A stretch of DNA of 34,022 nucleotides from Alphaproteobacteria bacterium. Its GTDB lineage: Bacteria > Pseudomonadota > Alphaproteobacteria > MED-G09. The DNA is taken from positions 1-34,022 of the forward strand of contig JABHUT010000145.1 of NCBI GenBank assembly GCA_018658685.1. Reading direction: 5' to 3'. Below are positions 7,233 to 34,022 of the stretch, piece by piece. The notes below the pieces were generated by a model. It made no database searches and was not told where the DNA came from. It saw nothing but the letters and a program-made list of their open reading frames with translations. A program made the translations under genes and the position numbers. The stretch's first letter is position 1, and every line of letters begins with the position of its first letter.

Positions 7233-7269
7233 AAACCACCGTACTTTATCCCCTGAAGTACGGTGGTTT
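7233..7269. terminator. Bidirectional intrinsic terminator hairpin between convergent amt and FAD-oxidase genes
   Basis: Perfect 14-bp stem AAACCACCGTACTT (7233-7246) / AAGTACGGTGGTTT (7256-7269) with a 9-nt loop. On the minus strand it is followed by TTTTAG. On the plus strand the stem ends in TTT followed by A/T. The minus-strand gene stop (7268-7270) lies in the stem edge. Confidence 0.7.
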
Positions 7270-8623
7270 AAAATATTTTACCGGGATTCATTATATTATT
7301 AGGATCAAGTGCTTTTTTTATTTGAGCCATAACGTCTACTGATATTCCTTTTTCTTTTCTTAGATGTTCTTTTTTCCCCAAACCTATTCCATGTTCACCT
7401 GTACATGTTCCGCCCATCTTTAATGCTCTAGTAACGAGTCTGTCATTAATATCTTTTGCCTCGTTAACTTCATCTTCATTTTCAGGATCAAGTAATAAAA
7501 TCAAATGAAAGTTTCCATCACCAACATGCCCAACGATTGGAGCAATAATAGTTGAGGATTCTAAATCTTTTTTTGTTTCTAAAATACATTCTGTTAAAGA
7601 GGAAATCGGAACACAAATATCAGTTGTAAAACTTTTTTTTCCAGGTGCTAAACTTAATGCAGCATAAAGTGCGCTATGGCGTGCACTCCAAAGTTTGTCT
7701 ATTTCTTCTTGCTGGTCCGACCAGTTAAAATTAATTAAACTATTTTCTTTAGCAATTTCTTCAAATTTTTCTATCTGCTCCCTAACACCAAGAGGTGTTC
7801 CATGAATTTCTATAAATAAAGTGGGTTTTTCTTCATGACTAGTTTTTTTGTATTGATTAATAGCCTTAATTTGCAGCTCATCTAAAAGTTCAATTCTAGA
7901 TAGAGGAAGACCAATTTGGATAGCTTCGATGACAGTATTTACTGCTCCGTCAAGCTCTGAAAAGCTACATACGCCAGCAGAAATAGCCTCAGGCCTTCCA
8001 TGTAACCTTAGGCTAATTTCAGAAATAAATCCTAACGTTCCTTCTGATCCTAGCATTAGGTGCGTTAGATCATATCCAGCCGATGATTTCCTTGCCCTTG
8101 AACCTGTTTGGATTATTTTACCATCAGGCATAATGACCTCTAAGCCAATAACTTGTTCTCGAATAGTACCGTATTTTACTGTATTTGTTCCTGATGCTCC
8201 AGTTGAACACATACCCCCAATAGATGCATTAGCGCCCGGATCAACTGGAAAGAATAATCCCGTATCTCTCAAAAAGGAGTTTAATTCTTCACGTGTTACA
8301 CCTGCTTGAACTCTACAATCCATATCTTCCATATTAACCTGAATAACTTTATTCATATTTCTTGAGTCAATTGTAATACCGCCATTTACAGCATGCACAT
8401 GACCCTCGAGTGCCGTCCCAGTTCCATAAGGTATTACAGGAATATTATTTTTAGAGGCAAAAGAAATTATTCTGGATACTTCATTTGATGTTTCAGGAAA
8501 AACTACTGCATCCGGAAGATTTTCAGGAACATGCCAAGATTCATCATGGCTGTGTTGAGATCTAACTGATTCAGAGGTTACTAATCTATCACCAAATAAA
8601 TTTTCTAATTCAGATAAATCCAT
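7268..8623 (-). CDS. FAD-linked oxidase, GlcD / D-lactate (D-2-hydroxyacid) dehydrogenase family
   Basis: 451 aa. The PCMH-type FAD-binding N-domain includes IPVIPYGTGTALEGH and ASIGGMCSTGASGT. The C-terminal FAD-oxidase_C signature is GGTCTGEHGIGLGKKEHL ... MNPGKIF. Confidence 0.8.
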   Translation of the reverse strand: MDLSELENLFGDRLVTSESVRSQHSHDESWHVPENLPDAVVFPETSNEVSRIISFASKNNIPVIPYGTGTALEGHVHAVNGGITIDSRNMNKVIQVNMEDMDCRVQAGVTREELNSFLRDTGLFFPVDPGANASIGGMCSTGASGTNTVKYGTIREQVIGLEVIMPDGKIIQTGSRARKSSAGYDLTHLMLGSEGTLGFISEISLRLHGRPEAISAGVCSFSELDGAVNTVIEAIQIGLPLSRIELLDELQIKAINQYKKTSHEEKPTLFIEIHGTPLGVREQIEKFEEIAKENSLINFNWSDQQEEIDKLWSARHSALYAALSLAPGKKSFTTDICVPISSLTECILETKKDLESSTIIAPIVGHVGDGNFHLILLLDPENEDEVNEAKDINDRLVTRALKMGGTCTGEHGIGLGKKEHLRKEKGISVDVMAQIKKALDPNNIMNPGKIF

Positions 8624-8635
8624 TTTTATAAAATT

Positions 8636-9838
8636 TTAGAGTCCAAGAACAAATTTAGCCATTATATTTCTTTGAACTTCATCTGACCCACCATAAATAG
8701 TAGATGCTCGGTTATTCAAGTATGAAGGAAAAGCTGTTAAAGCATGATCTGGACCAATTTTTTCTACATTTGAAAATGGTTGTCTAGCTTCATTCTGTAG
8801 GGGCATGGTATAGTAACCAACTGCTTCAACTGTAAGCATATCTACTTCCTGTTTTAAATTAGATCCACTAGATTTTAATATTGATGAAGCAGGACCAGGA
8901 TGACCTCTTTCAGCAATATCAGCCATAATTCTATGCTCGGTCATCAGAAGTGCTTGAACTTTTATTTCTGTTTCAGATAATGATTTTAAAAAAGCATCGT
9001 CTTCAAGCAAACTATTGCCAGTATCTGATCTTTCAACAGATGCAATTTGTTTAATTTTATTAATATTGGATTGAATACCAGCTGCATAATTACCGCCTCT
9101 TTCAAACTCAAGTAAGTATTTTGCGACTGTCCATCCATCATTTTCTTCACCAACTACATTTTCAATCGGTACCTTTACATCATCAAAAAATGTTTGATTA
9201 ACCTCATGATCACCAGCCATTGTGATTATTGGTTTAATCTCGATACCAGGAGTATCCATATCAATAAGTAAAAATGTTATGCCTTGTTGCGGTTTACCAC
9301 TATTATCTGTTCTTACTAGACAAAAAATTCTATTTGCATGCTGAGCATGTGTTGTCCAAATCTTTGTTCCATTTACAATATAGTGATCTCCATTTTTTAC
9401 AGCCTTGCATTGTAAGGATGCCAAATCTGATCCTGAACCAGGCTCTGAATACCCTTGGCACCAGAAATCCTCACCAGATAAAATTTTAGGTAAGTATAAA
9501 TCTTTTTGTTTTTGAGTACCATATTTCATAAGAACAGGGCCAACCATTGCTAATCCCATTGCTGTTGGAGATGGTGCGCCTGCCTTGGCACATTCAGTAG
9601 AAAAAATATATCTTTGCATATCGTCCCAACCAGTACCGCCGTATTCTTTTGGCCACTTTCCACCAATCCAACCTTTTTTGTGAAGAATTTTATGCCACTT
9701 GGAAGAGTATTCAACTTCGCTAAATACGCTTGCAGTTAGCTTTCCTGCCTCTCTTAACTCACTTGTAAGTTCAGAGTCTAGAAACTTAACAACTTCTTTT
9801 CGAAAATCTTCATATTCAGGTTTGAAACTTAAATCCAT
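8636..9838 (-). CDS. Acyl-CoA dehydrogenase
   Basis: 400 aa with WPKEYGG, CQGYSEPGSGSDLASL, IVNGTKIWTT, LEFERGG and C-terminal IYGGSDEVQRNIMAK. It sits 12 nt upstream of the FAD oxidase on the same strand. Confidence 0.9.
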   Translation of the reverse strand: MDLSFKPEYEDFRKEVVKFLDSELTSELREAGKLTASVFSEVEYSSKWHKILHKKGWIGGKWPKEYGGTGWDDMQRYIFSTECAKAGAPSPTAMGLAMVGPVLMKYGTQKQKDLYLPKILSGEDFWCQGYSEPGSGSDLASLQCKAVKNGDHYIVNGTKIWTTHAQHANRIFCLVRTDNSGKPQQGITFLLIDMDTPGIEIKPIITMAGDHEVNQTFFDDVKVPIENVVGEENDGWTVAKYLLEFERGGNYAAGIQSNINKIKQIASVERSDTGNSLLEDDAFLKSLSETEIKVQALLMTEHRIMADIAERGHPGPASSILKSSGSNLKQEVDMLTVEAVGYYTMPLQNEARQPFSNVEKIGPDHALTAFPSYLNNRASTIYGGSDEVQRNIMAKFVLGL

Positions 9839-9960
9839 TTTTTACTCCACTTTGAAAAATAATACTTAACTTTAAAAGCTATATTTGCATACTATAAAAC
9901 ATACTTGATAAGTTTATAAATAGTAATTAGAAATAAATCTAATTTTTTTGGGGTGACATA

Positions 9961-11538
9961 ATGCCGTATTATGAAGATATAGTTTTTTTAAGTGACATAC
10001 CTAGGTATCATGCTACCCATAACCCTGATCAAACTGCATTTGTTTATGAAGATAAAGAGACATCTTATAAAGATTTTAATATTAGAACTGAAAAAGTTGC
10101 CAATGGATTAGTTGAGATTGGAATAGCCAATCAAGAACGTGTTGCTTTCATGGATAAGAATTCTGATTTATTTTACGAAGTAGTTTTGGGTTGTACAAAA
10201 GCAAATGCAGTTGTAGTTGGAATTAATTGGAGGCTTGCTCCGCCAGAAGTGGCTTACATTTTAAATGATAGTGGAGCAAAAGTACTTTTTGTAGGCGAAG
10301 AGTTTTTTGATTTGGCCGATAAAATATTAGAACTATCAACAAGTGTCGAAACTGTAATTTGTCTTTCGGGATCAAGAGATGGATGGTCTTCTTATCAATC
10401 TTGGATAGATCAGCAGAACGATGAGCTTTGCTCAAGACAACCGAACTTAGATGATGTTGCTATTCAAATGTATACTTCAGGTACAACCGGAAACCCTAAA
10501 GGTGTTCAATTAACTCATGGAAATTTTCATTCCTCAAGAAATCGAGAACCCCAAAAAGGAATGGAATTTGGTGAATGGAATGAAGATGATGCAAGTTTAG
10601 TAGCAATGCCAAGTTTTCATATTGGTGGTGCTGGTTGGGGAATACAAGGTCTTTATGCATGCGCAAAAAATGTTGTTTTGAAAGAATTCATACCTGAAGA
10701 TGTTTTAGAAGTAATAGGAAAATATAAAATTTCTAAGATTTTTATGGTCCCTGCAGCAATGAAAATGGTTTTAGATCATCCACATTCAAGAAAAACTGAT
10801 TACTCTAATATTAAATACATATTATATGGAGCCTCACCAATTCCTTTAGATTTACTTAAAGAAGCTATGGAAGTTTTTGAATGTGGCTTTGTTCAATTAT
10901 ACGGTATGACAGAAACTTGTGGTTCGGTAACCTATTTGCCACCAGAGGATCATTCAATAGAAGGAAACGAAAGAATGAAATCAGCTGGTAAAGCATACCC
11001 TCATTGTGAAATTTCTATTTTAGATGATGAAAGTAAAGAGCTTGCCTTAGGGGAAGTTGGTGAGATAGCGGTAAGATCAACATCAAATATGCTTGGTTAC
11101 TGGAATCTCCCAGACGAGACAGCAAAAACTTTAAAAGATGGCTGGTTAAGAACTGGTGATGCTGGTTATATGGACTCAGATGGATATGTATATGTACATG
11201 ATAGAGTTAAGGATATGATTGTTTCAGGTGGAGAAAATGTTTATCCGGCTGAGGTTGAAAGTGCAATTTTTGGTCATGAAAAAATTAGTGATGTTGCTGT
11301 AATAGGTATACCTGATGATAGATGGGGTGAGGCCGTTAAGGCCGTTGTTGTTTTAAAAGAAGGTGAAAGTGCATCTGAAGAAGAGATTATTAATTTTGCA
11401 AAAGAGAGAATTGCAGGATTTAAATCTCCCAAATCAGTTGATTTTATTTCAGAACTTCCTAGAAATCCGTCTGGAAAAATTTTAAAGAAAGAATTAAGAG
11501 CCCCTTACTGGGAAGGTCGTGAAAGACAAATTAATTAA
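9961..11538 (+). CDS. AMP-dependent acyl-CoA synthetase/ligase
   Basis: 525 aa with the AMP-binding motif YTSGTTGNPKGV, plus YGMTET, TGDAGYMDSDGYVYVHDRVKDMIVSGGENVYPAEVE and PRNPSGKILKKEL. Confidence 0.9.
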   Translation: MPYYEDIVFLSDIPRYHATHNPDQTAFVYEDKETSYKDFNIRTEKVANGLVEIGIANQERVAFMDKNSDLFYEVVLGCTKANAVVVGINWRLAPPEVAYILNDSGAKVLFVGEEFFDLADKILELSTSVETVICLSGSRDGWSSYQSWIDQQNDELCSRQPNLDDVAIQMYTSGTTGNPKGVQLTHGNFHSSRNREPQKGMEFGEWNEDDASLVAMPSFHIGGAGWGIQGLYACAKNVVLKEFIPEDVLEVIGKYKISKIFMVPAAMKMVLDHPHSRKTDYSNIKYILYGASPIPLDLLKEAMEVFECGFVQLYGMTETCGSVTYLPPEDHSIEGNERMKSAGKAYPHCEISILDDESKELALGEVGEIAVRSTSNMLGYWNLPDETAKTLKDGWLRTGDAGYMDSDGYVYVHDRVKDMIVSGGENVYPAEVESAIFGHEKISDVAVIGIPDDRWGEAVKAVVVLKEGESASEEEIINFAKERIAGFKSPKSVDFISELPRNPSGKILKKELRAPYWEGRERQIN

Positions 11539-11554: not shown

Positions 11555-11968
11555 ATGAGTAATCAAAAACCAATAGCAGACAATCTTTTTACTTGGCCAT
11601 CCGATAAGCCAAAATTATTAGGTAGTCGCGACAGTGAAACAGGTAGATATTTCTTTCCTGCAAAAAGATCAAATACCCATGAGCAGGTTGAATTATCGAC
11701 AAAAGGTACATTATGGACTTGGACTGTGCAGAGATTTATGCCTAAAACACCATACATAGGAACAGAAAATCCTGAAGATTTTGAACCTTATCCTGTTGGA
11801 TATATTGAATTACCTGGACAAATTATGGTAGAGTCAAGATTATCTGGAGTTAAGGCAGAAGATTTAAAAATTGGAATGGAAATGGAGCTTTCAATAGAGC
11901 CATTTGTTAAAAATGAAGATGGAGAAGATCTAATGATGTTTTCCTTTAAACCATCTAAAGATTTATAG
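11555..11968 (+). CDS. DUF35-type OB-fold acyl-CoA-associated protein (thiolase partner)
   Basis: 137 aa. LLGSRDSETGRYFFPAKRS...GTLWTWTVQR...VGYIELPGQIMVESRL...IGMEMEL follows the DUF35_N + OB pattern. An RBS (GGAG) precedes it, and it lies 9 nt upstream of the thiolase-like gene. The protein has no Cys at all. Confidence 0.75.
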   Translation: MSNQKPIADNLFTWPSDKPKLLGSRDSETGRYFFPAKRSNTHEQVELSTKGTLWTWTVQRFMPKTPYIGTENPEDFEPYPVGYIELPGQIMVESRLSGVKAEDLKIGMEMELSIEPFVKNEDGEDLMMFSFKPSKDL

Positions 11969-11977
11969 GAGAAAATT

Positions 11978-13123
11978 ATGTCAGATGTAGCAATAATAGG
12001 AATTGGAATTCATCCCTTTGGAAGAACAGAAGGTATGACAGGTTTGCAACAGGGCGTTCATGCTGCGCGCGAAGCCTTATCAGATGCAGAAATGGAATGG
12101 GGTGATATTCAGTTTGCCTTTGGAGGATCTTCAGCAGCTGGAAATGCTGATGCAATGGTTAATGATTTAGGTCTTACTGGTATCCCATTTATGAATGTTT
12201 CAAATGGTTGTGCAACTGGTGGATCATCTCTTTTGTCTGCTTACACAACTATTAAATCAGGCCAATTTGATATTGGTATGGCGGTAGGTTTTGATAAACA
12301 TCCAAGAGGTGCTTTTAATGCTGATCCTGAAGCCTCAGGACTTGAGAGGTGGTATGGAGAAACTGGATTGATGTTAACAACTCAATTTTTTGGGATGAAA
12401 ATTCAACGCTATATGCATGATTATGGTATTACTTCTGATTCTCTAGCTATTGTTGCTGAAAAAGCATTTAATAATGCATCCTTAAATCCAAATGCTTGGA
12501 GACGTGATCCAGTATCAAAAGATACCATTCTAAATGCTATGATGGTTTCTGATCCATTAACAAAATATATGTTTTGTTCTCCTGGAGAAGGTGCGGTTGC
12601 TCTAATAATGTGTAGAGCTGATATTGCTCATAAGTTCACAAGTAAGCCTTTGTTTTTAAAAGGAGCAGCCTTTAGGTCAAGGCCACTAGGTTCTTTTGAG
12701 GTTTTTAGTCCTTCTTTAGAAATTGAAAGAGGCCCAAGCCCTACTGTGGGGGCATCTGAGGCAACATTTGAAATGGCAGGTATGACTCGTGAAGATATAG
12801 ATATTGCTCAACTTCAAGACACGGAATCTGGTGCAGAGATAATGCATATGGCTGAAAATGGATTTTGTAAAGATGGTGATCAAGAAAAACTTCTTCAAGA
12901 TGGAGACACAAAACTTAATGGAAAATTACCAGTAAATACAGATGGTGGATGTATAGCAAATGGTGAGCCTGTAGGAGCATCAGGTTTAAGGCAAGTTTAT
13001 GAGAATTGCGTTCAATTAAGAGGAGCGGCTGGCAAAAGGCAGGTTCAAGGAAATCCTAAAACAGCCTATACTCATGTTTATGGGGCTCCTGGAATATCAG
13101 CTTGTACAATTGTAACTACTTAA
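11978..13123 (+). CDS. Thiolase-like protein, SCP-x / lipid-transfer-protein type
   Basis: 381 aa. The nucleophile-Cys motif is NVSNGCATGGSSL, followed by AVGFDK. The C-terminal thiolase motif is NTDGGCIANGEPVGASGLRQ, with Glu where canonical thiolases have His in GHP. Confidence 0.85.
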   Translation: MSDVAIIGIGIHPFGRTEGMTGLQQGVHAAREALSDAEMEWGDIQFAFGGSSAAGNADAMVNDLGLTGIPFMNVSNGCATGGSSLLSAYTTIKSGQFDIGMAVGFDKHPRGAFNADPEASGLERWYGETGLMLTTQFFGMKIQRYMHDYGITSDSLAIVAEKAFNNASLNPNAWRRDPVSKDTILNAMMVSDPLTKYMFCSPGEGAVALIMCRADIAHKFTSKPLFLKGAAFRSRPLGSFEVFSPSLEIERGPSPTVGASEATFEMAGMTREDIDIAQLQDTESGAEIMHMAENGFCKDGDQEKLLQDGDTKLNGKLPVNTDGGCIANGEPVGASGLRQVYENCVQLRGAAGKRQVQGNPKTAYTHVYGAPGISACTIVTT

Positions 13124-13133: not shown

Positions 13134-14135
13134 ATGATTAATAAACAATTTACCTTAGCAGGGAGACCTGTTGGGCGTCCTATAGAAGATTCTGATTTTG
13201 AATACAAAGAATCTGAAATTGGAGAACCTAATGAGAATGAAGTTCTTCTCGAAAATCTAGTAATAGAGTTTCAACCTGCCCAAAAAGGTTGGATGGAGCA
13301 AATTTCTAATTATGTTGCACCTCTGGAAATTGGGGATGTTATGAGGTGTGGTGGAATTGCAAGAGTATTAGAAAGTAAATCTAAAAAATTCAAAAAAGGT
13401 GATATTGTTTCCGGTCAAACATGTTGGCAAACGCATCCAATTCTTGATGCTACTGAACTTGAGAAAGTAGATGATGAAAGTATGGCTACTAAATACTTGG
13501 GTGCTTTAGGAAGTACTGGGTTAACAGCATATTTCGGAGTTACAAAAATCAGTAAACCAAAACCAGGTGATACAGTTGTTATAACTGGTGCTGCAGGAGG
13601 TGTAGGATCCGTTGCAGGACAAATTTTCAAAATTGCTGGCTGCAAAGTTATAGGGATTGCTGGTGGTAAAGAAAAATGCGACATGTTGATTGATGAATTT
13701 GGATTTGATGGAGCTGTTGATTATAAGTCTGAAGATATAAATGAAGCTCTAAAAAAGTTGTGTCCAGAAGGGGCTAATGTTCTTTACGATAATGTGGGTG
13801 GAAGAATTCTTAATGATTGCTTAAATCACATTGCTATGAATGCACGAGTTGCTATTTGTGGAATTATATCTCGACACAAAACAGATAATTCAAATTTCGG
13901 ACCAGAAAATTACGCTAATTTGATTTTTAAGAGAGCTAAAATGGAAGGATTTATCGTTATTGATTTTATGTCAGAGAGCGGAGACGCAAGAAAGAAATTA
14001 AAAAAATGGATCTCTGAAGGAAAGATTAATTGCAAGGAAGATATGCAAGAAGGTTTCGAAAATGCTCCAAAAACTCTTAGACGATTATTTGAGAGTAAAA
14101 ATAAAGGCAAGCAACTTTTAAAGATAGCTGATTAA
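13134..14135 (+). CDS. NADP-dependent oxidoreductase, zinc-independent MDR (alkenal/enone reductase, YncB/CurA/LTB4-dehydrogenase-like)
   Basis: 333 aa with N-terminal FTLAGRPVGRPIEDSDFEY and nucleotide motif GAAGGVGSVAGQIFKIAGCKVIGIAGGKEKC. No zinc-ligand GHE motif. Confidence 0.85.
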   Translation: MINKQFTLAGRPVGRPIEDSDFEYKESEIGEPNENEVLLENLVIEFQPAQKGWMEQISNYVAPLEIGDVMRCGGIARVLESKSKKFKKGDIVSGQTCWQTHPILDATELEKVDDESMATKYLGALGSTGLTAYFGVTKISKPKPGDTVVITGAAGGVGSVAGQIFKIAGCKVIGIAGGKEKCDMLIDEFGFDGAVDYKSEDINEALKKLCPEGANVLYDNVGGRILNDCLNHIAMNARVAICGIISRHKTDNSNFGPENYANLIFKRAKMEGFIVIDFMSESGDARKKLKKWISEGKINCKEDMQEGFENAPKTLRRLFESKNKGKQLLKIAD

Positions 14136-14587
14136 AATTTCATAGACCCTGCTACTCCAGATCGTCCATTCAAATTTTCAATATTAAGAGTTTTTTCATT
14201 TTGGGCTGTATCCATAAATTCATAAACCTCTGTAATTTTTGAACTTTCAATTTTAAATATATGGCAATAGGTCTGATCCATAACCTCCCCATTTAAAGAT
14301 TTACCTCTAGCACTCATTAAGCCAGTTACTCTATCATCATCTGCGCACATAATTTTCCAATTCTCAGCAAATGCTACTGTATTTTGATCTAAACTTGCAA
14401 CTACCGCTGGGACTAGAATGCCGTAGACATTTTCTTTACCTTCCCAGTATCCAGAGAAAGGAGATTCACCAATGATATGAAATTTTACATTTTCATCCAT
14501 TAGTGAAATTACTGTTTCAAAATCTCCACTACTTATTGATTTATAATATGTTTCCATAATTTTTCTATTTTTATTGCTATTACTCAT
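14132..14587 (-). CDS. SnoaL-like / NTF2-fold protein (ketosteroid-isomerase-like)
   Basis: 151 aa. IMETYYKSISSGDFETVISLMDENVKFHIIGESPFSGYWEGKENV is the typical SnoaL_2-type opening. Its stop overlaps the stop of the convergent reductase gene (TTAA, 14132-14135). Confidence 0.6.
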   Translation of the reverse strand: MSNSNKNRKIMETYYKSISSGDFETVISLMDENVKFHIIGESPFSGYWEGKENVYGILVPAVVASLDQNTVAFAENWKIMCADDDRVTGLMSARGKSLNGEVMDQTYCHIFKIESSKITEVYEFMDTAQNEKTLNIENLNGRSGVAGSMKF

Positions 14588-25560: not shown

Positions 25561-25967
25561 TGTATAGTAAAGGATCTAATTTAAAGGATTGGGCGTTTTT
25601 AGTACCTCAGGAAAGTATGAATACTTGGGCTGTTATTCTAGACGATCCAAACCCTATTCATCTAGATGCTAATGCTGCCAAACAAGTCGGTTTGGGTGAC
25701 AAAACTATAAATCAAGGCCCGGCAAATATTGCTTATATATTGAACATGATTGAAGAAAATTTTCCTAACTCTCGAATTCTAAAGATGAATAATAAGATGA
25801 CTGATTCAGTTCTTGAGGGTGATTTAGTAACTGTTTCTGGACAGATTTCAGAAATTAAAGCTGAAGGTGATCAATTTATTGCTTCATGTTCAATAAAGTT
25901 AACTGTAGGAGAAGATAAAATTGCTGTATTATCTGAAATTGATGTATTGTTTGAGAGATCTCAATAA
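25560..25967 (+). CDS. MaoC-like (R)-specific enoyl-CoA hydratase, catalytic hot-dog subunit
   Basis: The track ORF starts at 25533. ATG 25560 overlaps the upstream stop by 1 nt (TAATG) and follows GGAGAAGGAGG, so it is preferred. The hydratase-2 motif is present: WAVILDDPNPIHLDANAAK (D-x-N-P-I-H-x5-A). Confidence 0.75.
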   Translation: MYSKGSNLKDWAFLVPQESMNTWAVILDDPNPIHLDANAAKQVGLGDKTINQGPANIAYILNMIEENFPNSRILKMNNKMTDSVLEGDLVTVSGQISEIKAEGDQFIASCSIKLTVGEDKIAVLSEIDVLFERSQ

Positions 25968-26871: not shown

Positions 26872-27387
26872 TTATTTATCTAGCTTTCTATATTTTTCAT
26901 TATCGGCCCTAAGGTTGAAACCTAAAAATAAGCCTCCGAGATCACCTCTAATACCCTCTGATTTGACAGAAAAATTATCATCTAAAATATACAACCTTCT
27001 ACTAACCTTCCAGCCTTCAGGTGTTTTCGAAAATTCATCATGATATCTACCGCAATAAACATTAACATCTTGAATTCCAGCCTCGGTTATTTCACCGCCT
27101 GAGGTTAGTCCATAACTTTCTACTTCCGCTTTATCACCATTTATCTCAATGGCTACATTGCTGATTAAATGCCAGCTATGACCACCTTTCTCAACTTCCA
27201 TAACTGCGGGGATAAAACCTTTTGCATCTCCTGCATAAAATCCATAATCAATGAAGCCATCTTCTATAAAGCAACTTCTCAAGAGGTCTTCATCCATCCA
27301 GTCAAGTGCACGACAATATCTTGTTAAGCAATCGTTAATACTTTGTATTGCCTCAATTTTTTCTAATCTTTCTTCAATATTGCTCAT
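26872..27387 (-). CDS. SnoaL_4-type NTF2-fold protein (ring-hydroxylating-dioxygenase-beta-like fold)
   Basis: 171 aa. IEAIQSINDCLTRYCRALDWMDEDLLRSCFIEDGFIDYG is the typical SnoaL_4 opening. First gene of the minus-strand SnoaL_4/ABM/ABM unit. Confidence 0.6.
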   Translation of the reverse strand: MSNIEERLEKIEAIQSINDCLTRYCRALDWMDEDLLRSCFIEDGFIDYGFYAGDAKGFIPAVMEVEKGGHSWHLISNVAIEINGDKAEVESYGLTSGGEITEAGIQDVNVYCGRYHDEFSKTPEGWKVSRRLYILDDNFSVKSEGIRGDLGGLFLGFNLRADNEKYRKLDK

Positions 27388-27423: not shown

Positions 27424-27436
27424 TACAAACACAAAA
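27424..27436 (-). promoter_or_regulatory. Shared 13-nt element copy 1 (TTTTGTGTTTGTA on minus strand), 36 nt upstream of the SnoaL_4 start
   Basis: Exact 13-mer TACAAACACAAAA (plus strand), identical to 29962-29974. Its TTGTA end can serve as a -35 for the minus-strand gene. Confidence 0.3.
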
Positions 27437-27500: not shown

Positions 27501-29465
27501 TTGCGAAGTCTATTAATTATTTTATTCTTTATTTTATATACTTCTCAAGGTTACTCAGAGGTTGATGACTGGTCTTCTTATGGAAAAGACTCAGGCGGCG
27601 GCCATTATTCTAAAGCTACAGAGATTACTCCTGAAAATGTAAAAAATTTAAAAAAAGTTTGGACACATCGATCTGGTGATTATCACAAGGGTTTAAACTG
27701 GACAGAAGATGTTACACCAAACAGCAGTCAGCAAACATCTTTTCAAGCCACTCCTCTTTTAGTGAATGAAACTTTATATTATTGCACTCCTTATAATAGA
27801 GTTTTTGCTTTGGACCCTGCAACAGGTGAGGAAAAATGGATTTTTGATCCGAAAGTTGAAAAAGAGGGTAAAGCACTTATGCACTGCAGAGGTGTTGGTA
27901 GTTGGATTGATAGTGAAAAAGTTGAATCTGATAAATGTTATCATAGGATTATCACAGGAACAATTGATGCAGAGCTCTTTTCTATTGACGGAAAAACTGG
28001 AGAGCTATGTAAGGACTTTGGTGATGATGGTCTTGTCGATTTAAGATCCGGTCTAGGCGATCACAATCCAGCATTTTATTATAGTGTTTCACCACCAGCT
28101 ATTATAGGTGATTTAGTAATCGTTGGCGGAGGCATTCCTGATAATGTAAGTACTTCTGTACCGGGAGGTGTAGTTCGTGCTTATGATATTCGGACAGGTG
28201 AGTTAGTTTGGTATTGGGACCCTATTCCTCCAGGTCAAGAACCAGTTATCGATGATCTAGGAAACCAGTTATATCAAAGAGGGACAACAAATGTTTGGTC
28301 GATAATTTCGACCGACCCTGAATTAAATCTTGTTTATTTACCAACTGGTAATACTGCAGCAGATAATTATGGTGGCCATCGAAATGGATCAGACTATTAT
28401 TCTAGTTCTGTTGTTGCATTAAACGCCTCAACTGGAGAGGTTGTTTGGCATTTTCAAACAGTTCATCATGATATTTGGGATTATGATGTTCCATCACAAC
28501 CAACTTTTTATGATATAAAAAAAGACGGAAAGATTATTAAGGCTTTAGCTCAAACAACAAAGATGGGATTAGTTTTTTTACTGAATAGAGAAACTGGTGA
28601 ACCTATTTTTCCAATTGAAGAAAGAGATGTACCCCAAGGAGCCGTGGATGGTGACTATGTTACAAAGACACAACCTTTTCCATCAAAGCCAGCACCTCTT
28701 ACTCCGACTTATTTAGATCCTGAAGATGTTTTTGGCTTTACTCCTTGGGATAAAGGATATTGTAAAAAAGCTGCCGAAGATTATAGGAATGAAGGTCTTT
28801 ATACACCTCCATCAATTGAAGGTAGTGTCCATTATCCAAGCGCGATTGGGGGAGCGAATTGGGGTGGTCCTGCAATTGATGCTTCTAGAAATATTCTCAT
28901 TGCAAATACTATGAACCTCTCCAGTACTATAGTAATGATCCCAAGAAGTGATTGTGATAAAGCCCTTAAAGATTTAGCAAGGGATAGCGTTCAATCAAGA
29001 TTTTCAGCATTGCAACAAAATGAAGGGACGCCTTATTGTACAATTAGAGCTTTTGGTTTTATGTCACCTTTAGGTGTTCCATGTACAAAACCACCTTGGG
29101 GCAATCTAACGGCAATTGATTTAGATACTGGAGAGCATTTGTGGCAAATTCCTCTTGGAACTTCTAAAGATTTAGCACCTTTTCCATTTTGGTGGATAAA
29201 AGGGGCTCCTAATATAGGGGGACCTACAGTAACTGCTTCAGGCTTAACATTTATTGCGGCAACTAGTGATTATTATTTGCGAGCATTTAATACTTTAACA
29301 GGTGAAGAGTTAGCTAAGTTTCGATTACCAACTGGGGGCCACGCAACACCTATGACTTATAAAAATAAGAATGGCAAACAATTTGTAGTTATAGCTGCTG
29401 GAGGTCACTGGGCTGTAGGATCACCAGCTTCTGATCACTTGATAGCATATGCCCTTCCAGACTAG
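27501..29465 (+). CDS. PQQ-dependent dehydrogenase, glucose/quinate/shikimate family, secreted form without N-terminal membrane anchor
   Basis: TTG start 8 nt after AGGAG, with signal peptide MRSLLIILFFILYTSQGYS. 654 aa. Motifs: DDWSSYGKDSGGGHYSKATEITPENVKNLKKVWTHRSGD, HHDIWDYDVPSQPTF and GGANWGG. No vicinal Cys-Cys, as in the GDH type. Confidence 0.85.
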   Translation: MRSLLIILFFILYTSQGYSEVDDWSSYGKDSGGGHYSKATEITPENVKNLKKVWTHRSGDYHKGLNWTEDVTPNSSQQTSFQATPLLVNETLYYCTPYNRVFALDPATGEEKWIFDPKVEKEGKALMHCRGVGSWIDSEKVESDKCYHRIITGTIDAELFSIDGKTGELCKDFGDDGLVDLRSGLGDHNPAFYYSVSPPAIIGDLVIVGGGIPDNVSTSVPGGVVRAYDIRTGELVWYWDPIPPGQEPVIDDLGNQLYQRGTTNVWSIISTDPELNLVYLPTGNTAADNYGGHRNGSDYYSSSVVALNASTGEVVWHFQTVHHDIWDYDVPSQPTFYDIKKDGKIIKALAQTTKMGLVFLLNRETGEPIFPIEERDVPQGAVDGDYVTKTQPFPSKPAPLTPTYLDPEDVFGFTPWDKGYCKKAAEDYRNEGLYTPPSIEGSVHYPSAIGGANWGGPAIDASRNILIANTMNLSSTIVMIPRSDCDKALKDLARDSVQSRFSALQQNEGTPYCTIRAFGFMSPLGVPCTKPPWGNLTAIDLDTGEHLWQIPLGTSKDLAPFPFWWIKGAPNIGGPTVTASGLTFIAATSDYYLRAFNTLTGEELAKFRLPTGGHATPMTYKNKNGKQFVVIAAGGHWAVGSPASDHLIAYALPD

Positions 29466-29479: not shown

Positions 29480-29920
29480 TTAAATAATTATTAATGCTTC
29501 TCTAAATATCATGATAGCTAGAGCTATCCAGCTTAACATAAAAAGAGAAAATCTAAACCACACAAGATTAATTGTTGCTTGAAGAATAGAATGAATAATT
29601 CTAATTACAACATAAGTCCAAGCACAATAAAGGTGAAGAACATCCGTATGATTAAGACCCCAAATTATAAATGAAATTGCGTAAAATATAGTTGGTTGTT
29701 CAAAAAGATGATTATAATTATCCGCAACTCTTTCAACTTTACTAGGAAAAATTCCACCAATTGAAGCAGGGTGTGAGAACTTTTGAACATCAACTCCATC
29801 TTCTTCAAGTTTTTTTGCTGCGGGGAGTCTAGTTGCATACATCCAAACCATCATCACAAAAGATAATACACACATTATAATGGCTGGTTGTAATATTAAA
29901 TCATTCATAAGTTTCTCCAA
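29480..29920 (-). CDS. MAPEG-family small membrane protein (glutathione-transferase-like)
   Basis: 146 aa with four hydrophobic segments. RVADNYNHLFEQPTIFY resembles the R-x-x-x-N-x-x-E-x-x-P core of bacterial MAPEG proteins. Confidence 0.5.
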   Translation of the reverse strand: MEKLMNDLILQPAIIMCVLSFVMMVWMYATRLPAAKKLEEDGVDVQKFSHPASIGGIFPSKVERVADNYNHLFEQPTIFYAISFIIWGLNHTDVLHLYCAWTYVVIRIIHSILQATINLVWFRFSLFMLSWIALAIMIFREALIII

Positions 29921-29961: not shown

Positions 29962-29974
29962 TACAAACACAAAA
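29962..29974 (-). promoter_or_regulatory. Shared 13-nt element copy 2, 41 nt upstream of the MAPEG start
   Basis: Exact TACAAACACAAAA. On the minus strand, TTGTAA -16 nt- TAATAT follows, giving a plausible -35/-10. Confidence 0.3.
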
Positions 29975-30023: not shown

Positions 30024-30050
30024 TTTGTTATTAGGATGGGGGTATCTAAT

Positions 30051-30929: not shown

Positions 30930-30935
30930 AGTTAT

Positions 30936-32525
30936 TTATTTACCAAAAACTTTTTCTCCCAAGTCGAAATTTTTTAATTTAAATTTTTGAACTTTTGTTG
31001 AAGACATAGGCCAATCATCTATAAAGACAATATATCTAGGAATTTTAAAATTTGAGATTTGTCCTTTTGAAAATACGATAAGATCTTCTTTTGATATTTT
31101 TGATCCAGGTTTTCTTTCAACAAATAACGCTGGAACTTCACCAAGGTGGTCATCATCCACTCCAACTACTTGACTGATCAAAACTTCTTCGTGGCTATCA
31201 AAATAAGCTTCAATTTCCAACGCTGCTACATTTTCTCCACCAACCTTCAACATATCTTTTAATCTTCCATGAAAACGAATATGCCCTTCTTTACTTAAAG
31301 ACCCAATATCCCCACTTGAAAACCAACCATCTGATGATAAGGCATTCTCAGTTGCTTTTTTATCATTTAAATAACCGGAAAATACGTGCTTTCCTTTAAT
31401 TTCAATAAGTCCTTTTTCATCCGGACCTAGAACTTCATTTGTTTCAGGGTTTAATATCCTTATTTCTGCACCTGGCCATGGTTTGCCGCATGTTGAGATT
31501 CTGTCTTCCAGAGAATCTTCAGGTGAGCCAAATGAGGTAACACCTCCCACCTCTGTTAATCCATAAGCAGAAACTAAGCTAGCTTGAGGAACTTTATTTT
31601 GGAAGGACCTTAAAGTTTCTATTGGGGCTACGTTATTTATTAATCTTAGGCTTTTGAGATTTTCAGGTAAGAAATCTTGATGGTTAATAAGCGAAACCAT
31701 TACAGCTGGAAAAGCAGGAAAAGCAATTGAAACATCTTTTTCAATTAATGTTTTAATTGAAGTATCAGGATCAAAATGAATAGTTGAGATAAAGGTTGAT
31801 TTTGAAATTGCACAGGCCATAAATGGAAGTATTGATGACATATGAAACATAGGAAGAGGGTCCCAAAAAACATCTTCTTCGCTCATACTCCATCTATTGA
31901 CCATTGCGTTTGCAACATAAATTAAACTTGCATGGCTTAAAGGACATCCTTTTGGATTTGCAGTTGTTCCAGATGTATACATAATAAATGCTGGATCATC
32001 ATCTTGGCCTATTGGGTCTTGGTGAATTTTATTGTTTACTTCAATCTCTTCAAAGTCTTTAAAGTCCTTAAATCTTTTATCTTTAGATCCACCTATAATG
32101 TATACATCAGATAGATTTTGAGGCTTTCCTTCAGGGGAATCATAGACGGAACTTATTAAATTAGAGAAATTAGTTACTTCATCAGAATCTGAGCTAGTAA
32201 ACAATGCTTTGCAACCACTATCATGCATTACATAGTGAAGTTCTTTTGCCTTATAACGAGCATTAATATTTACCGGAACAATACCTGCGTAAATGGCACC
32301 ATACATAAGAGTTAGATATTCAATTGAATTGAATAAAAGTATTCCTACTTTATCTCCCTTTTGAAGACCAAGCTCTCTAAATTTTTTGGCATATGAGGTT
32401 GTAAGTTCTGAAAATTCTTCGAAACTTAATGTTCTATTGTCTACTGTTAAGCAATCTTTTTTAGAAAATTTATCATCAAAAATGGTTGATATTTGTCCTA
32501 AATTTTTAGCATCCTTTAAATTCAT
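30936..32525 (-). CDS. AMP-dependent acyl-CoA synthetase/ligase
   Basis: 529 aa with YTSGTTANPKG, YGLTEVGG, SGDIGSLSKEGHIRFHGRLKDMLKVGGENVAALEIE and the C-terminal Lys region SSTKVQKFKL. Confidence 0.9.
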   Translation of the reverse strand: MNLKDAKNLGQISTIFDDKFSKKDCLTVDNRTLSFEEFSELTTSYAKKFRELGLQKGDKVGILLFNSIEYLTLMYGAIYAGIVPVNINARYKAKELHYVMHDSGCKALFTSSDSDEVTNFSNLISSVYDSPEGKPQNLSDVYIIGGSKDKRFKDFKDFEEIEVNNKIHQDPIGQDDDPAFIMYTSGTTANPKGCPLSHASLIYVANAMVNRWSMSEEDVFWDPLPMFHMSSILPFMACAISKSTFISTIHFDPDTSIKTLIEKDVSIAFPAFPAVMVSLINHQDFLPENLKSLRLINNVAPIETLRSFQNKVPQASLVSAYGLTEVGGVTSFGSPEDSLEDRISTCGKPWPGAEIRILNPETNEVLGPDEKGLIEIKGKHVFSGYLNDKKATENALSSDGWFSSGDIGSLSKEGHIRFHGRLKDMLKVGGENVAALEIEAYFDSHEEVLISQVVGVDDDHLGEVPALFVERKPGSKISKEDLIVFSKGQISNFKIPRYIVFIDDWPMSSTKVQKFKLKNFDLGEKVFGK

Positions 32526-32651
32526 AAGTTTCCTCTGATATCAACTATAGTAAATTATCATTCGCTTGGAATATTAAAATTATTGTGTGATAATTCTAGA
32601 AGGTATTAAATAAAAATGAAATAAAAAAGAATAAAATTTGGGAAGAAAATT

Positions 32652-34022
32652 ATGATTAATATTGGTCTTACAACGGCAAAACAAGCAGAGCTTCGTCCAA
32701 ACTCTTGGGCTGTATATGATCAGACTTCAGGAAAAAGAATAACATTTTTTGAGTTGGATGAATTAGTTAAAAAGACTGCTAATGGCCTTATGAGCCTTGA
32801 TTTAAAGAAAGGTGATAGAGTTTCGATTCTTTCACAAAATTCGATTGAATTTCTATCCCTCTTTTTTGCTTGTGGACGGGTTGGTTTGGTTGCTCATGCG
32901 CTAAATTGGCGATTGGGTGTGGATGAGTTAGCTCAGATATTAAAAAATGGCGAACCTAGTGTGATTATAACTCAGGGTAAGTTTCAAAGTGTAGCTAAAG
33001 ATTTACAGAAGAAGATAGATTTTATTGACCATTGGTTGGAGTATGATGTTGATAGTGATCATTCTTTTAATTTGTTATTAGATAAGTCACCGTCAACAGA
33101 GCCAATAGTAGCAGAAGATATTGGTGACGAAGATCCTTTTTTTATTTTGTATACGGGTGGAACAACTGGCGTTTCCAAAGGGGCTTTGCATACTCATAAA
33201 TCTGCATATTTTGGTATGTTAAACCAAACAGTTGCTGAACGAATAGTGCCTTCAGATGTCTATATGCTTACGGGTCAAATGTTTCATATTCCTGTTTTGT
33301 TGGCTATGAATTACACCTCTCACGGTTGCCCCATTGTTTTGATGAATTTCGATGCTGAACTTGCACTGAATCTTATTCAGGAAGAAAAGGTCTCTGGATT
33401 TCTTGGAATTACAACAATGCTTAATTGGATGCTAGCAGTTGAAGGTTTCGATAACTTTGATTTATCAAGCTTAAGGTGCGTTCAATATGGAGGTGGTCCA
33501 ATGCCAACTCGAGTAATAGAGGAAGTTCTTCAGAAACTTCCTGGTGGTATTATTCAGGGTTATGGACAAACAGAAGGAACTACTATGACATTTCTTTCTC
33601 AAGAAGATCATATTAATGCAGTAAACGGCATTCATCCTGAAAGACTTAAATCTTGTGGTCGAGCAGGATATGTTACATCTGTTCTTGTTGTTGGGCCTGA
33701 TGGAAAGCCTGTCCCAAATGACAATAAAACACCTGGTGAAATAATAGTTAAGTCTGATGCAAATATGGTTGGTTATTATCGTCAACAAGAGTTAACCGAT
33801 AAATGTATAAAAGATGGATGGATGTGGACAGGCGATATAGCAACCTGGGATGATGAGCAATATATTTTTATTAAGGATAGGGCAAAAGATATGATTATAT
33901 CTGGCGGCGAGAATATATACTCTGTTCAGGTAGAAGAGGCTGTATCACAGCATGAGGCTGTACTTGAAACTGCAGTTTTTGGAATACCTGATGATGAATG
34001 GGGTGAATCAGTTATGGCTTAT
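32652..34022 (+). CDS. AMP-dependent acyl-CoA synthetase/ligase, 5' 457 codons; continues beyond window end
   Basis: Not in the ORF track because there is no stop in the window. Hand translation from ATG 32652 gives MINIGLTTAKQAELRPNSWAVYDQTSGKRITFFELDELVKK... with YTGGTTGVSKG, GYGQTEGT, TGDIATWDDEQYIFIKDRAKDMIISGGENIYSVQVE and FGIPDDEWGESVMAY at the edge. The frame is open for exactly 1371 nt. Confidence 0.85.
   Translation, partial: MINIGLTTAKQAELRPNSWAVYDQTSGKRITFFELDELVKKTANGLMSLDLKKGDRVSILSQNSIEFLSLFFACGRVGLVAHALNWRLGVDELAQILKNGEPSVIITQGKFQSVAKDLQKKIDFIDHWLEYDVDSDHSFNLLLDKSPSTEPIVAEDIGDEDPFFILYTGGTTGVSKGALHTHKSAYFGMLNQTVAERIVPSDVYMLTGQMFHIPVLLAMNYTSHGCPIVLMNFDAELALNLIQEEKVSGFLGITTMLNWMLAVEGFDNFDLSSLRCVQYGGGPMPTRVIEEVLQKLPGGIIQGYGQTEGTTMTFLSQEDHINAVNGIHPERLKSCGRAGYVTSVLVVGPDGKPVPNDNKTPGEIIVKSDANMVGYYRQQELTDKCIKDGWMWTGDIATWDDEQYIFIKDRAKDMIISGGENIYSVQVEEAVSQHEAVLETAVFGIPDDEWGESVMAY

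Follow-up and report, generated by a model that had tools for sequence, protein, structure and literature searches.

The stretch of DNA analysed here, called the window throughout, comprises 34,022 nucleotides of contig JABHUT010000145.1 (assembly GCA_018658685.1), from an alphaproteobacterium of the MED-G09 lineage. It carries a dense, conserved island of acyl-CoA catabolic genes. The clustering of these genes far exceeds chance and related species share the gene order. We judge it to have a little better than an even chance that the island is best described as a pathway in which a sterically hindered hydrophobic acid, whether branched, alicyclic or alkyl-aromatic, is degraded as its coenzyme A (CoA) ester. 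A first-pass annotation made from the sequence had recognised an island between 7268 and 34022 and had read it as a crotonase-free, peroxisome-like oxidation of phytol, isoprenoid acids or sterol side chains. The island itself is borne out and is wider than that interval, extending from about 3161 to the window end and for at least another 8.5 kb, whereas the peroxisome-like phytol reading is mostly unsupported. The features of the window are listed in Table 1.

The window is AT-rich (GC 0.31-0.39), densely coding and without a compositional break. The Rieske protein finds genes with 76-98% identity in genomes labelled PS1 clade, OCS116 cluster, 'Rhodobiaceae MED801' and 'alpha proteobacterium MED-G09', which identifies the host as an alphaproteobacterium of the PS1/OCS116 clade. 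Bacteria of this clade are common in the surface ocean. Gene-neighbourhood conservation was evident at two levels. Synteny was found in nine PS1-type genomes at 76-99% amino-acid identity, and mapping with tblastn showed that the order from GlcD to E1 beta is preserved in four PS1 species. Even the most divergent PS1-like loci keep the core formed by the SnoaL gene on the minus strand, ACAD alpha, ACAD beta, MaoC and Rieske. The quinone-oxidoreductase-type reductase (QOR), the split hydratase, some accessory genes and the second pyrroloquinoline quinone (PQQ) protein (PQQ2) vary between PS1 species. An identical thiolase-like protein sequence was recovered on contigs from 100 blocks of a public assembly collection, so the same or a nearly identical organism is widespread.

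All open reading frames (ORFs) of at least 100 amino acids were scanned against Pfam and NCBIfam. The scans reproduced nearly all of the inventory of the first-pass annotation: three CoA ligases, three acyl-CoA dehydrogenases (ACADs), a DUF35 partner, two non-zinc medium-chain dehydrogenases/reductases (MDRs), a GlcD-type oxidase, an E1 alpha/beta pair and a Rieske oxygenase. Both PQQ proteins, which had been called secreted, begin with signal-peptide-like sequences. The count of four MaoC/hot-dog genes holds for the window as a whole; only three of them lie from 7268 onwards and the fourth is found at 3161-3682. Only ligase 1 reached a curated NCBIfam cutoff (a subfamily model). As no other window protein did so, the names of the NCBIfam families are not transferable. 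No match to Rfam was obtained. The reported lack of crotonase, FadB and FadA was confirmed for the window and about 7 kb around it. No window ORF matched the ECH_1/2, 3HCDH or classical thiolase families in Pfam and NCBIfam (for FadB the Pfam scans are the basis), and three crotonase queries gave zero tblastn matches in all frames of the window and of the 8.5 kb past its end. The sole crotonase-fold gene within reach was an ECH_2 gene about 7.4 kb ahead of the window.

One component with an altered active site is the thiolase-like protein that is encoded next to DUF35. Compared with solved structures it scored best against the benzoylsuccinyl-CoA thiolase BbsB (154 bits), followed by SCP2-thiolase type 1 (144 bits), the archaeal thiolase of the thiolase/HMGCS/DUF35 complex (133 bits) and Ltp2 (6ok1, 88 bits). 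Residue alignments show that the nucleophilic Cys78 is retained (NVSNGCATG), but that the HDCF/HDAF motif is replaced by QDTE and GHP by GEP. The protein thus lacks both catalytic histidines and the acid/base cysteine of thiolases, and with these residues lost it cannot cleave a C-C bond in the textbook thiolase manner. Neither the Tyr/Tyr pair of Ltp2 nor the Tyr/Cys catalytic pair of the Sal aldolase (PMC12329534) is present, with QDTE at that position. The altered motifs are invariant in 120 homologues of 68-100% identity and also occur in orthologues of 60-67% identity from Novosphingobium, Rhodococcus and Halieaceae; the subfamily as a whole remains 60-70% identical from Rhodococcus to PS1. 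The earlier label of an SCPx-type thiolase is therefore not supported. The DUF35 protein contains no cysteine at all, so its zinc ribbon is lost. The same loss was observed in Novosphingobium, Rhodococcus and two other genomes; the Halieaceae orthologue has CxxC...CxxC. One related described system is the BbsAB benzoylsuccinyl-CoA thiolase of anaerobic toluene degradation, in which BbsB, the top-scoring solved structure above, works with a DUF35-type partner, BbsA. BbsA, a thiolase subunit according to its NCBIfam profile name only, is the sole NCBIfam match of the DUF35 protein. However, BbsB keeps the HD and GHP histidines, neither of which is found in the window protein.

The gene pair recurs in comparable company elsewhere. 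On plasmid pNL2 of Novosphingobium aromaticivorans and in Croceicoccus marinus we found a contiguous run of DUF35, thiolase-like protein, ACAD, E1 alpha, E1 beta, E2 and VOC, in which the ACAD is 47% identical to ACAD1 of the window. A second E1 pair, located beyond the window end, is 60-61% identical to the E1 proteins of Novosphingobium, Croceicoccus and Paracoccus and is thus the closer orthologue; it shares 52% (alpha) and 50% (beta) identity with the pair in the window. In Halieaceae the DUF35/thiolase pair occurs with a SnoaL protein, a Rieske alpha subunit, a ligase, an orthologous ene-reductase (48% identical to the one at 13134-14135) and a crotonase.

The second conserved set is built around the Rieske oxygenase and the short-chain dehydrogenase/reductase (SDR) at 18623-19495. 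The Rieske protein has intact CxH...CxxH and DxxxE..HxxxxH motifs, for the Rieske cluster and the mononuclear iron respectively. It resembles solved enzymes over its N-terminal half only, at about 90 bits, the nearest being a putative aromatic-ring dioxygenase, phthalate dioxygenase, carnitine monooxygenase and the stachydrine demethylase-type entry 3vca. Its family of about 404 amino acids, referred to as Rieske404, is widespread with orthologues at 53-62% identity. For the SDR the best solved matches were a Bacillus SDR (3imf, 167 bits), an AtuB-like protein of 'citronellol catabolism' (6lln, 166 bits), human PECR (third, 148 bits) and DECR (124 bits). Its active-site stretch AAHTCAARAG aligns with AVHSGAARAG of PECR, following the pattern H-S/T-x-A-A-R/K-A/S-G without the tyrosine of the classical YxxxK motif, and its top NCBIfam match was 2,4-dienoyl-CoA reductase (203 bits, below the cutoff of 318). 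By these similarities the earlier assignment as a PECR-like enzyme is correct at the family level. An SDR orthologue (55-57% identity) accompanies the Rieske orthologue in two non-PS1 loci and in Paracoccus, and SDR identities reach 67% in metagenome loci. In Croceicoccus the Rieske orthologue was matched, but the PECR-type SDR was not.

In order to describe the wider cluster outside PS1 we mapped metagenome loci by tblastn and counted partner genes in the 12 loci with enough flanking sequence. The usual order begins with ABM-ligase-ABM, a Rieske ferredoxin, VOC-ACAD, a family III CoA-transferase and two glutathione S-transferases (GSTs), and continues with Rieske404-KASIII::DUF35-thiolase-like-PECR-type SDR-CMD, MaoC, a second Rieske alpha, TetR and an SDR. 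CMD accompanied Rieske404 in all 12 loci, ABM and ACAD in 11 of the 12 each, and the Rieske ferredoxin, KASIII::DUF35 and the thiolase-like gene in 10 each. The PECR-type SDR and the second Rieske alpha were found in 9/12 loci each, and VOC, ligase, GST and CoA-transferase in 8/12 each. MaoC and PQQ/cytochrome c were present in three loci each, whereas the ChsE-type ACAD pair, QOR, the CurA-type reductase and the thiolase of the window type were found in none (0/12). Between PS1 and the widespread cluster the identities are 57% for the Rieske protein, 57% for the SDR, 44% for MaoC, 37% for the ligase (ligase 2) and the second Rieske alpha, and 38% each for the ABM pair, VOC and the Rieske ferredoxin. 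MaoC1 is 44-57% identical to MaoC proteins adjoining Rieske orthologues elsewhere, and relatives of the propeller at 22457-24292 with 36-40% identity also adjoin Rieske clusters. In most non-PS1 relatives a fusion of a KASIII/HMGCS-like domain with DUF35 (about 480 aa) directly follows the Rieske gene and is itself followed by a thiolase-like gene, an arrangement that recalls the archaeal thiolase/HMGCS/DUF35 complex and PhlABC. The ABM genes stand in tandem in the window, whereas they flank the CoA ligase on both sides in the widespread cluster.

Three cultured strains carry related clusters: Novosphingobium aromaticivorans DSM 12444 on pNL2 (SARO_RS18605-18680), Croceicoccus marinus E4A9 on pCME4A9I (A9D14_RS16370-16550) and Paracoccus pantotrophus DSM 2944 on pPAN2 (ESD82_RS07860-07970). 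DUF35, the thiolase-like protein, ACAD1, E1 alpha/beta, Rieske and MaoC have true orthologues among them (46-65% identity); the PECR-type SDR was matched in Paracoccus only (57%). They share the accessory families VOC, ThuA, ligases, TetR, PQQ propeller and ABM with the island. They differ from it in being plasmid-borne, in having TonB or ABC uptake and an E2/E3 or lipoyl protein, and in having no ChsE4/5-type ACAD pair beside the Rieske gene. On pPAN2 the order is Rieske404, a crotonase (related to enoyl-CoA hydratase) in place of the PS1 MaoC, PECR-type SDR and ligase, with E1 alpha/beta, LpdA, ThuA, VOC and an ABC transporter nearby. The Rieske module of Croceicoccus marinus comprises MaoC (49%), an E1 pair, a lipoyl protein, TetR and a PQQ propeller, and lies 27 kb from the module of DUF35/thiolase-like protein, ACAD, E1 and E2, both within 40 kb. 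Overall both gene sets occur on megaplasmids of Sphingomonadales, the Rieske set also in Paracoccus, and many uncultured Proteobacteria carry them too. From these comparisons the PS1 island appears to have arisen within its lineage by recombining two gene sets that other Alphaproteobacteria also carry together. No published function for the clusters of the cultured carriers was found in the literature searched. A crotonase sits between Rieske and SDR in Paracoccus and beside DUF35/thiolase in Halieaceae, so the crotonase-free character, previously taken as a property of the pathway, is a trait of the lineage.

Further acyl-CoA enzymes of the island resemble those of steroid side-chain degradation (ChsE4-ChsE5, ChsH1-ChsH2, Ltp2-DUF35; Scd/Shy/Sal). 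The ACAD alpha and beta genes abut without a gap (15827/15828) and their best solved structures, Tcur3483/3481 and ChsE4-ChsE5, place them in the heteromeric steroid-side-chain type (alpha2beta2, with one full and one shortened subunit), as far as sequence comparison can tell. The protein at 25063-25560 was modelled from a 14-sequence alignment, which replaced a single-sequence AlphaFold model with a predicted local distance difference test score (pLDDT) of 42. The new model has a hot-dog fold (pLDDT 80, predicted template modelling score 0.75), its best structural matches are ChsH1-ChsH2, HadAB and MaoC-like structures, and its remote relatives include proteins of about 300 aa that carry this domain N-terminally fused to a MaoC domain. 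The model and the fused relatives suggest that it forms a split double hot-dog hydratase with the overlapping MaoC2. Profile comparison of the shallow PS1 alignments of this protein against MaoC1 and MaoC2 with hhalign had no power, with even MaoC1 against MaoC2 reaching a probability of only about 2%. Hydratases of the MaoC/hot-dog families are (R)-specific, and by this family knowledge the window enzymes are predicted to have the stereochemistry assumed in the first-pass annotation.

The similarity to the steroid system, which further includes a thiolase-superfamily protein with DUF35, is distant, at about 60-160 bits. A zinc site is missing from the window DUF35, and its thiolase-like partner keeps the Cys nucleophile without an aldolase Tyr/Tyr or Tyr/Cys pair. 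The steroid side-chain modules in turn have no counterpart to the Rieske protein, the PECR-type SDR or E1 alpha/beta, and the window holds no steroid-nucleus genes.

From these components and their conserved linkage we infer an order of reactions and a class of substrate. With slightly better than even confidence, the island would serve to degrade, by an aerobic route that depends on CoA, a bulky hydrophobic carboxylic acid in which a branched, ring-attached or alicyclic carbon blocks ordinary beta-oxidation. The acid would be thioesterified by one of the three ligases, the heteromeric ACAD would desaturate the hindered alpha-beta bond and the MaoC-type hydratases would add water to give (R)-alcohols. 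The C-C bond would then be broken by the DUF35/thiolase-like complex. By analogy with IpfAB and with KshA, the Rieske oxygenase may hydroxylate a carbon beyond the reach of the hydratases, probably on the CoA ester. Conjugated double bonds would be removed by the PECR-type SDR and the two MDRs, and E1 alpha/beta may decarboxylate or cleave a 2-oxo or alpha-hydroxy-keto (acyloin) intermediate. In 2-oxoacid and acetoin dehydrogenase complexes E1 alpha/beta works together with E2 (lipoyl acyltransferase) and E3; orthologous sets carry E2, a lipoyl protein or LpdA, which suggests that the E2 and E3 partners of the window pair are encoded elsewhere. The TetR regulator, with its FadR/YsiA-type ligand domain, probably senses an acyl-CoA.

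Two sets of hints bear on the substrate. The AtuB/PECR-type SDR, a P450terp-like neighbour, the ChsE/ChsH-type enzymes, the NTF2 and ABM folds and three separate C=C reductases point to an isoprenoid or alicyclic acid. The ring-hydroxylating type of the Rieske protein, the ipf-like adjacency of thiolase-like protein and DUF35, neighbouring genes of aromatic type and the sphingomonad plasmid context point to an aryl-CoA. Both sets are real and neither is decisive.

Several observations count against the breakdown of a hindered acid by this route. The residues known for thiolysis or retro-aldol cleavage are missing from the thiolase-like protein, and we did not identify an E2, an E3 (both also not found in the flanks), a Rieske reductase or a clear 3-hydroxyacyl-CoA dehydrogenase in the window. 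In two genomes the DUF35/thiolase-like pair is surrounded by housekeeping genes, and it may thus be general-purpose. Outside PS1 the linkage of ACAD alpha/beta and MaoC to Rieske, QOR and the CurA-type reductase are not seen with the Rieske gene (0/12 loci), and E1 accompanies it in a single locus of the 12. The island is also interrupted by Gcw_chp and Amt genes. Finally, the literature search found no experimental data on any orthologue, and nothing usable came from papers about the metabolism of PS1/OCS116, phytol genes of bacteria or the orthologues in N. aromaticivorans (around Saro_355x-356x).

An unlikely alternative is a 'hybrid' aerobic route for an aryl- or alkyl-aromatic acid, as in the ibuprofen genes ipfABDEF of Sphingomonadaceae. 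The acid would be converted to its CoA ester, which the Rieske enzyme would dioxygenate on the ring. The thiolase-like/DUF35 complex would then remove the side chain as an acyl-CoA, and neighbouring genes of aromatic type would open the ring. In the ibuprofen system ipfD is genetically required for growth and the thiolase encoded by ipfDE is credited with the release of propionyl-CoA. It combines a CoA ligase with a Rieske oxygenase and with an SCPx-like thiolase and its DUF35-type partner, working on a CoA ester; the window has genes of the same component families, whose products may likewise act on a CoA ester. The window Rieske is of the ring-hydroxylating alpha type, and outside PS1 it directly precedes thiolase-like and DUF35 genes in 10/12 loci, which is the logic of ipfA-ipfD-ipfE. 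Furthermore, a second Rieske alpha, a Rieske ferredoxin, an SDR and two VOC genes lie just past the window, and orthologous modules are carried on plasmids of the aromatic degrader Novosphingobium aromaticivorans and of Croceicoccus marinus. In PS1, however, the thiolase-like/DUF35 pair belongs to another operon and to another subfamily, with 28-29% identity to the Rieske-adjacent one. The window contains no Rieske beta subunit, and ACADs, hydratases, reductases and E1 come in addition; the VOC proteins, at 158-178 aa, are short and at most candidate extradiol dioxygenases. The closest solved relatives of the Rieske protein include the non-aromatic monooxygenases carnitine monooxygenase and 3vca. 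In addition, PS1 sets the Rieske gene between the heteromeric ACAD with MaoC and the enoyl reductases, so an aliphatic or alicyclic chain fits better.

The absence of any single pathway is unlikely to a similar degree. Under this explanation the window would be a gene-dense stretch where lipid and redox paralogues of a kind common in Parvibaculum-like bacteria, without a functional connection, happen to be neighbours, with a different substrate for each unit. The at least ten transcription units on both strands, the Gcw_chp and Amt genes in the middle with the strong terminator at 7233-7269, the occurrence of the DUF35/thiolase pair free of any island in two genomes, the variability of PQQ2, QOR and the split hydratase between PS1 species and the finding of one regulator gene only and no shared operator motif would all agree with such a mosaic. 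It is opposed by the recurrence in distant taxa of Rieske, SDR, MaoC, the ABM pair, ligase, VOC, PQQ-cytochrome c and E1 on the one hand and of DUF35-thiolase, ACAD and E1 on the other. The two modules again lie side by side in Croceicoccus, and the order from GlcD to E1 beta is preserved in four PS1 species.

We regard it as doubtful that the PS1 island, with the widespread Rieske404 cluster of which it is a part, represents a new aerobic CoA-dependent strategy against carbon skeletons that resist beta-oxidation, in which the Rieske enzyme would hydroxylate a tertiary or ring carbon of an acyl-CoA, the Cys/Glu/Gln protein of the thiolase superfamily with DUF35 would cleave the C-C bond and the thiamine diphosphate (ThDP)-dependent E1 would remove the keto unit. 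Such a route would be a functional analogue, not a homologue, of peroxisomal alpha/beta-oxidation, and in an abundant oligotrophic marine clade it could act in nature on acids of isoprenoid origin (from the breakdown of phytol or carotenoids) or on carboxyl-rich alicyclic dissolved organic matter.

The bacterial counterpart of peroxisomal alpha/beta-oxidation itself, acting on phytol-derived 3-methyl and 2-methyl branched acids as the first-pass annotation proposed, is very unlikely. In that scheme a PQQ enzyme would oxidise phytol, the PECR-like SDR would reduce phytenoyl-CoA, a hydroxylase with a ThDP enzyme would perform alpha-oxidation, and MaoC, SDR and SCPx would carry out (R)-specific beta-oxidation. 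The likeness is partly real. MaoC-type hydratases are present with no crotonase or FadBA found nearby, the SDR is similar to PECR (sharing H-S/T-x-A-A-R-A-G) and to the AtuB-like SDR of the citronellol pathway, and the thiolase-like protein falls in the SCP2-thiolase branch (144 bits overall). The GlcD-like oxidase and E1 alpha/beta could in principle convert a 2-hydroxy to a 2-oxo acid and on to acyl-CoA(n-1), and the P450terp-like gene upstream suits this scheme as well as the hindered-acid reading. However, several enzymes that define the peroxisomal routes were not found. PhyH (a 2-oxoglutarate oxygenase), a ThDP lyase of the HACL/OXC type, the SCP2 domain and the CoA_transf_3 family of AMACR (PF02515) gave no match in the window, 8.5 kb downstream and about 10 kb upstream (10 kb for CoA_transf_3), and the TPP_enzyme N/M/C domains had no full match in the window, with a single sub-cutoff TPP_enzyme_C match on E1 alpha. 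A Rieske oxygenase stands in place of PhyH, an E1 alpha/beta in place of a HACL-type lyase and ACADs in place of acyl-CoA oxidases, and the catalytic histidines of SCPx and the HDCF cysteine are replaced. As a counterpart of the MFE-2 dehydrogenase the SDR at 3709-4482 beside a MaoC gene is a candidate without a specific NCBIfam match, the SDR at 18623 being of the reductase type. The latter is evolutionarily tied to Rieske in clusters with GSTs, KASIII::DUF35, CMD and Rieske components of aromatic type, and orthologous clusters elsewhere contain crotonases. The proposed conversion of alcohol to acid by PQQ enzymes did not hold up either. The strong PQQ enzyme, PQQ2, is a member of the glucose/quinate/shikimate family. 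It was not seen in any other PS1 locus of the comparison, several of these ending short of its expected position, and the propeller at 22457-24292 reached only 109 bits against the alcohol-dehydrogenase family. Nothing specific points to phytol or a sterol as the substrate. PQQ2 is a soluble, signal-peptide version of a family that is normally membrane-anchored.

Least likely of the readings is a sterol or bile-acid side-chain module in which the heteromeric ACAD, MaoC and a thiolase-like/DUF35 aldolase would release propionyl- or acetyl-CoA: ACAD alpha/beta are nearest to Tcur3483/3481 and ChsE4/5, the split hydratase is structurally nearest to ChsH1-ChsH2, a DUF35 partner and NTF2-fold proteins are present and the side-chain cluster of Sphingobium Chol11 holds a Rieske enzyme, but that enzyme is a KshA homologue and was rejected as a relative of the Ring_hydroxyl_A-type window protein, the Ltp2 Tyr/Tyr and Sal Tyr/Cys pairs are absent with Ltp2 at 88 bits against 154 for BbsB, all similarities fall far under the NCBIfam equivalog cutoffs, and KstD, KshA, HsaA-D, FadD3 and IpdAB were found neither in the window nor in its flanks.

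All families encountered here are known, catabolic clusters of these families are very common and nothing is mechanistically unprecedented yet. What is new is this assembly in an abundant marine clade, its membership in a widespread cluster of Rieske and PECR-type SDR genes, and a conserved subfamily of thiolase-like proteins whose active site is altered. Should the island degrade a defined class of hydrophobic, branched or alicyclic acids, a named clade would be connected with what becomes of algal lipids or of terpenoid-derived dissolved organic matter. Two conserved and widely distributed sets, Rieske with PECR-type SDR and DUF35 with the His-less thiolase-like protein, lack an assigned reaction. 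As Novosphingobium aromaticivorans and Paracoccus pantotrophus, both in culture and genetically tractable, carry orthologues, the question is testable.

Table 1. Features of the window, with strand and the match or observation behind each assignment.
Feature	Position	Strand	Basis
MaoC-type hydratase (RipB/Ich-like), upstream of 7268	3161..3682	+	Pfam MC_hydratase and MaoC; NCBIfam RipB_Ich 208 bits (cutoff 340, not reached)
Classical SDR, candidate 3-hydroxyacyl-CoA dehydrogenase	3709..4482	+	Pfam adh_short_C2; no NCBIfam equivalog reached
DsbA-like thioredoxin-fold protein	4484..5068	+	Pfam DSBA, 1.9e-42
GlcD-like FAD-linked oxidase, D-2-hydroxyacid dehydrogenase type	7268..8623	-	Pfam FAD_binding_4 and FAD-oxidase_C; NCBIfam glcD 345 bits (cutoff 568, not reached)
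ACAD1, PimC-like acyl-CoA dehydrogenase	8636..9838	-	NCBIfam pimC_large 404 bits (cutoff 624, not reached)
Acyl-CoA ligase 1	9961..11538	+	Pfam AMP-binding; NCBIfam subfamily PRK06187 616 bits, over cutoff
DUF35 OB-fold partner, no Cys	11555..11968	+	Pfam OB_ChsH2_C only
Thiolase-like protein, Cys78 kept, HDCF to QDTE, GHP to GEP	11978..13123	+	Alignments to BbsB, SCP2-thiolase and archaeal thiolase
Non-zinc MDR ene-reductase (CurA / LTB4-12HD type)	13134..14135	+	Pfam ADH_N_2; NCBIfam CurA 330 bits (cutoff 440, not reached)
SnoaL_2 / NTF2-fold protein	14132..14587	-	Pfam
ACAD alpha of heteromeric pair	14682..15827 (ORF opens 14670)	+	Best solved structures Tcur3483 (6wy9) and Mtb ChsE4 (4x28)
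ACAD beta, shortened partner subunit	15828..16868	+	Best solved structures Tcur3481 and ChsE5; middle ACAD domain missing in Pfam
MaoC1, single hot-dog hydratase	16871..17326 (ORF opens 16838)	+	Pfam MaoC
Rieske non-haem iron oxygenase, alpha-only (Rieske404)	17384..18601 (ORF opens 17372)	+	Pfam Rieske and Ring_hydroxyl_A
PECR/DECR/AtuB-type SDR (enoyl-thioester reductase type)	18623..19495	+	Solved-structure matches and alignments
QOR, non-zinc MDR of quinone-oxidoreductase type	19496..20455	+	Pfam; NCBIfam PIG3 family, under cutoff
ThDP-dependent E1 alpha	20473..21447	+	Pfam E1_dh; best solved structure human PDH E1 alpha, 186 bits
E1 beta	21447..22460	+	Pfam Transket_pyr and Transketolase_C; NCBIfam PRK09212 317.7 bits (cutoff 321)
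PQQ-like beta-propeller, signal peptide, N-terminal cytochrome c (CLGCH)	22457..24292	-	Pfam; N-terminus
TetR regulator, YsiA/FadR-like C-terminal domain	24316..24966	-	Pfam TetR_N and TetR_C_4; NCBIfam Bacillus FadR 77 bits, under cutoff
Predicted hot-dog partner subunit (N-terminal half of split double hot-dog hydratase)	25063..25560	+	Alignment-based model; no Pfam match
MaoC2, canonical DPNPIH motif, 28-nt overlap with 25063..25560 gene	25533..25967	+	Pfam MaoC
Two tandem, very similar ABM-fold paralogues	25961-26377, 26430-26843	-	Pfam ABM
SnoaL_4 / NTF2 protein, weak Ring_hydroxyl_B similarity	26872..27387	-	Pfam
PQQ2, soluble signal-peptide PQQ dehydrogenase, glucose/quinate/shikimate type	27501..29465	+	Pfam PQQ 764 bits; TIGR03074 727 bits, profile positions 152-783
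MAPEG membrane protein	29480..29920	-	Pfam
VOC/glyoxalase-fold protein	30036-30512	+	Pfam
Small protein, weakly SnoaL-like	30534-30929	+	Pfam
Acyl-CoA ligase 2	30936..32525	-	Pfam
Acyl-CoA ligase 3, cut by window end	32652..34022	+	Pfam

The genes of the island are arranged in at least ten transcription units on both strands, with boundaries proposed from gene spacing. The longest is a plus-strand unit of eight genes with gaps of at most 45 nt (ACAD alpha, ACAD beta, MaoC1, Rieske, SDR, QOR, E1 alpha and E1 beta). Ligase 1, DUF35, the thiolase-like gene and the ene-reductase form a four-gene unit on the same strand with gaps of 9-16 nt. Further units are ACAD1-GlcD (-), TetR-PQQ/cytochrome c (-), the split hydratase (+), SnoaL4-ABM-ABM (-) and VOC with the small protein (+), in addition to the single genes SnoaL (-), PQQ2 (+), MAPEG (-), ligase 2 (-) and ligase 3 (+). 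The MaoC, SDR and DsbA-like genes (3161-5068) are split from the rest by Gcw_chp, Amt and a hairpin. This hairpin, at 7233-7269 between the convergent Amt and GlcD-like genes, is a perfect 14-nt inverted repeat whose stem can be extended to 16 bp and which has a T-run on either strand. It probably terminates transcription in both directions and separates the Gcw_chp-Amt insert from the island. With this exception, the scan for promoters and terminators gave no enrichment over shuffled sequences.

The TetR gene was the only regulator gene seen in the island and an operator motif common to the units was not found. An AT-rich palindrome lies beside the TetR gene at 24981-25012. The exact 13-nt repeat TACAAACACAAAA occurs at 27424-27436 and 29962-29974, in the divergent promoter regions of SnoaL4/PQQ2 and MAPEG/VOC. 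Its count at two mismatches was not above chance and it is missing from the loci of other species; judged by its sequence and position it could be a shared regulatory site or a chance match. A 30-nt direct repeat at 9944-10012 (70% identity, copies 39 nt apart) extends across the beginning of the gene for ligase 1 and may be due to chance.

Past the window end the 8.5 kb contain the second E1 alpha/beta pair, ThuA, a Zn-dependent alcohol dehydrogenase, two VOC genes, the second Rieske alpha (459 aa), the Rieske ferredoxin and an SDR. On the other side a P450 gene lies about 3-4.3 kb upstream of the window start, by a pump of the RND type and ahead of a valine-type catabolic set (aldehyde dehydrogenase, ACAD, the ECH_2 hydrolase-like gene and a 3-hydroxyisobutyrate dehydrogenase-like gene). 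The P450 is closest to P450terp/CYP108 (356 bits), then to CYP125, CYP124 and CYP153, and a role as a CYP152-type alpha-hydroxylase was rejected on the basis of its CYP108/P450terp-like character. The outer-membrane factor and membrane-fusion genes of the RND efflux pump occupy 412-3003, directly upstream of the island, and its inner-membrane component is located just before the window.

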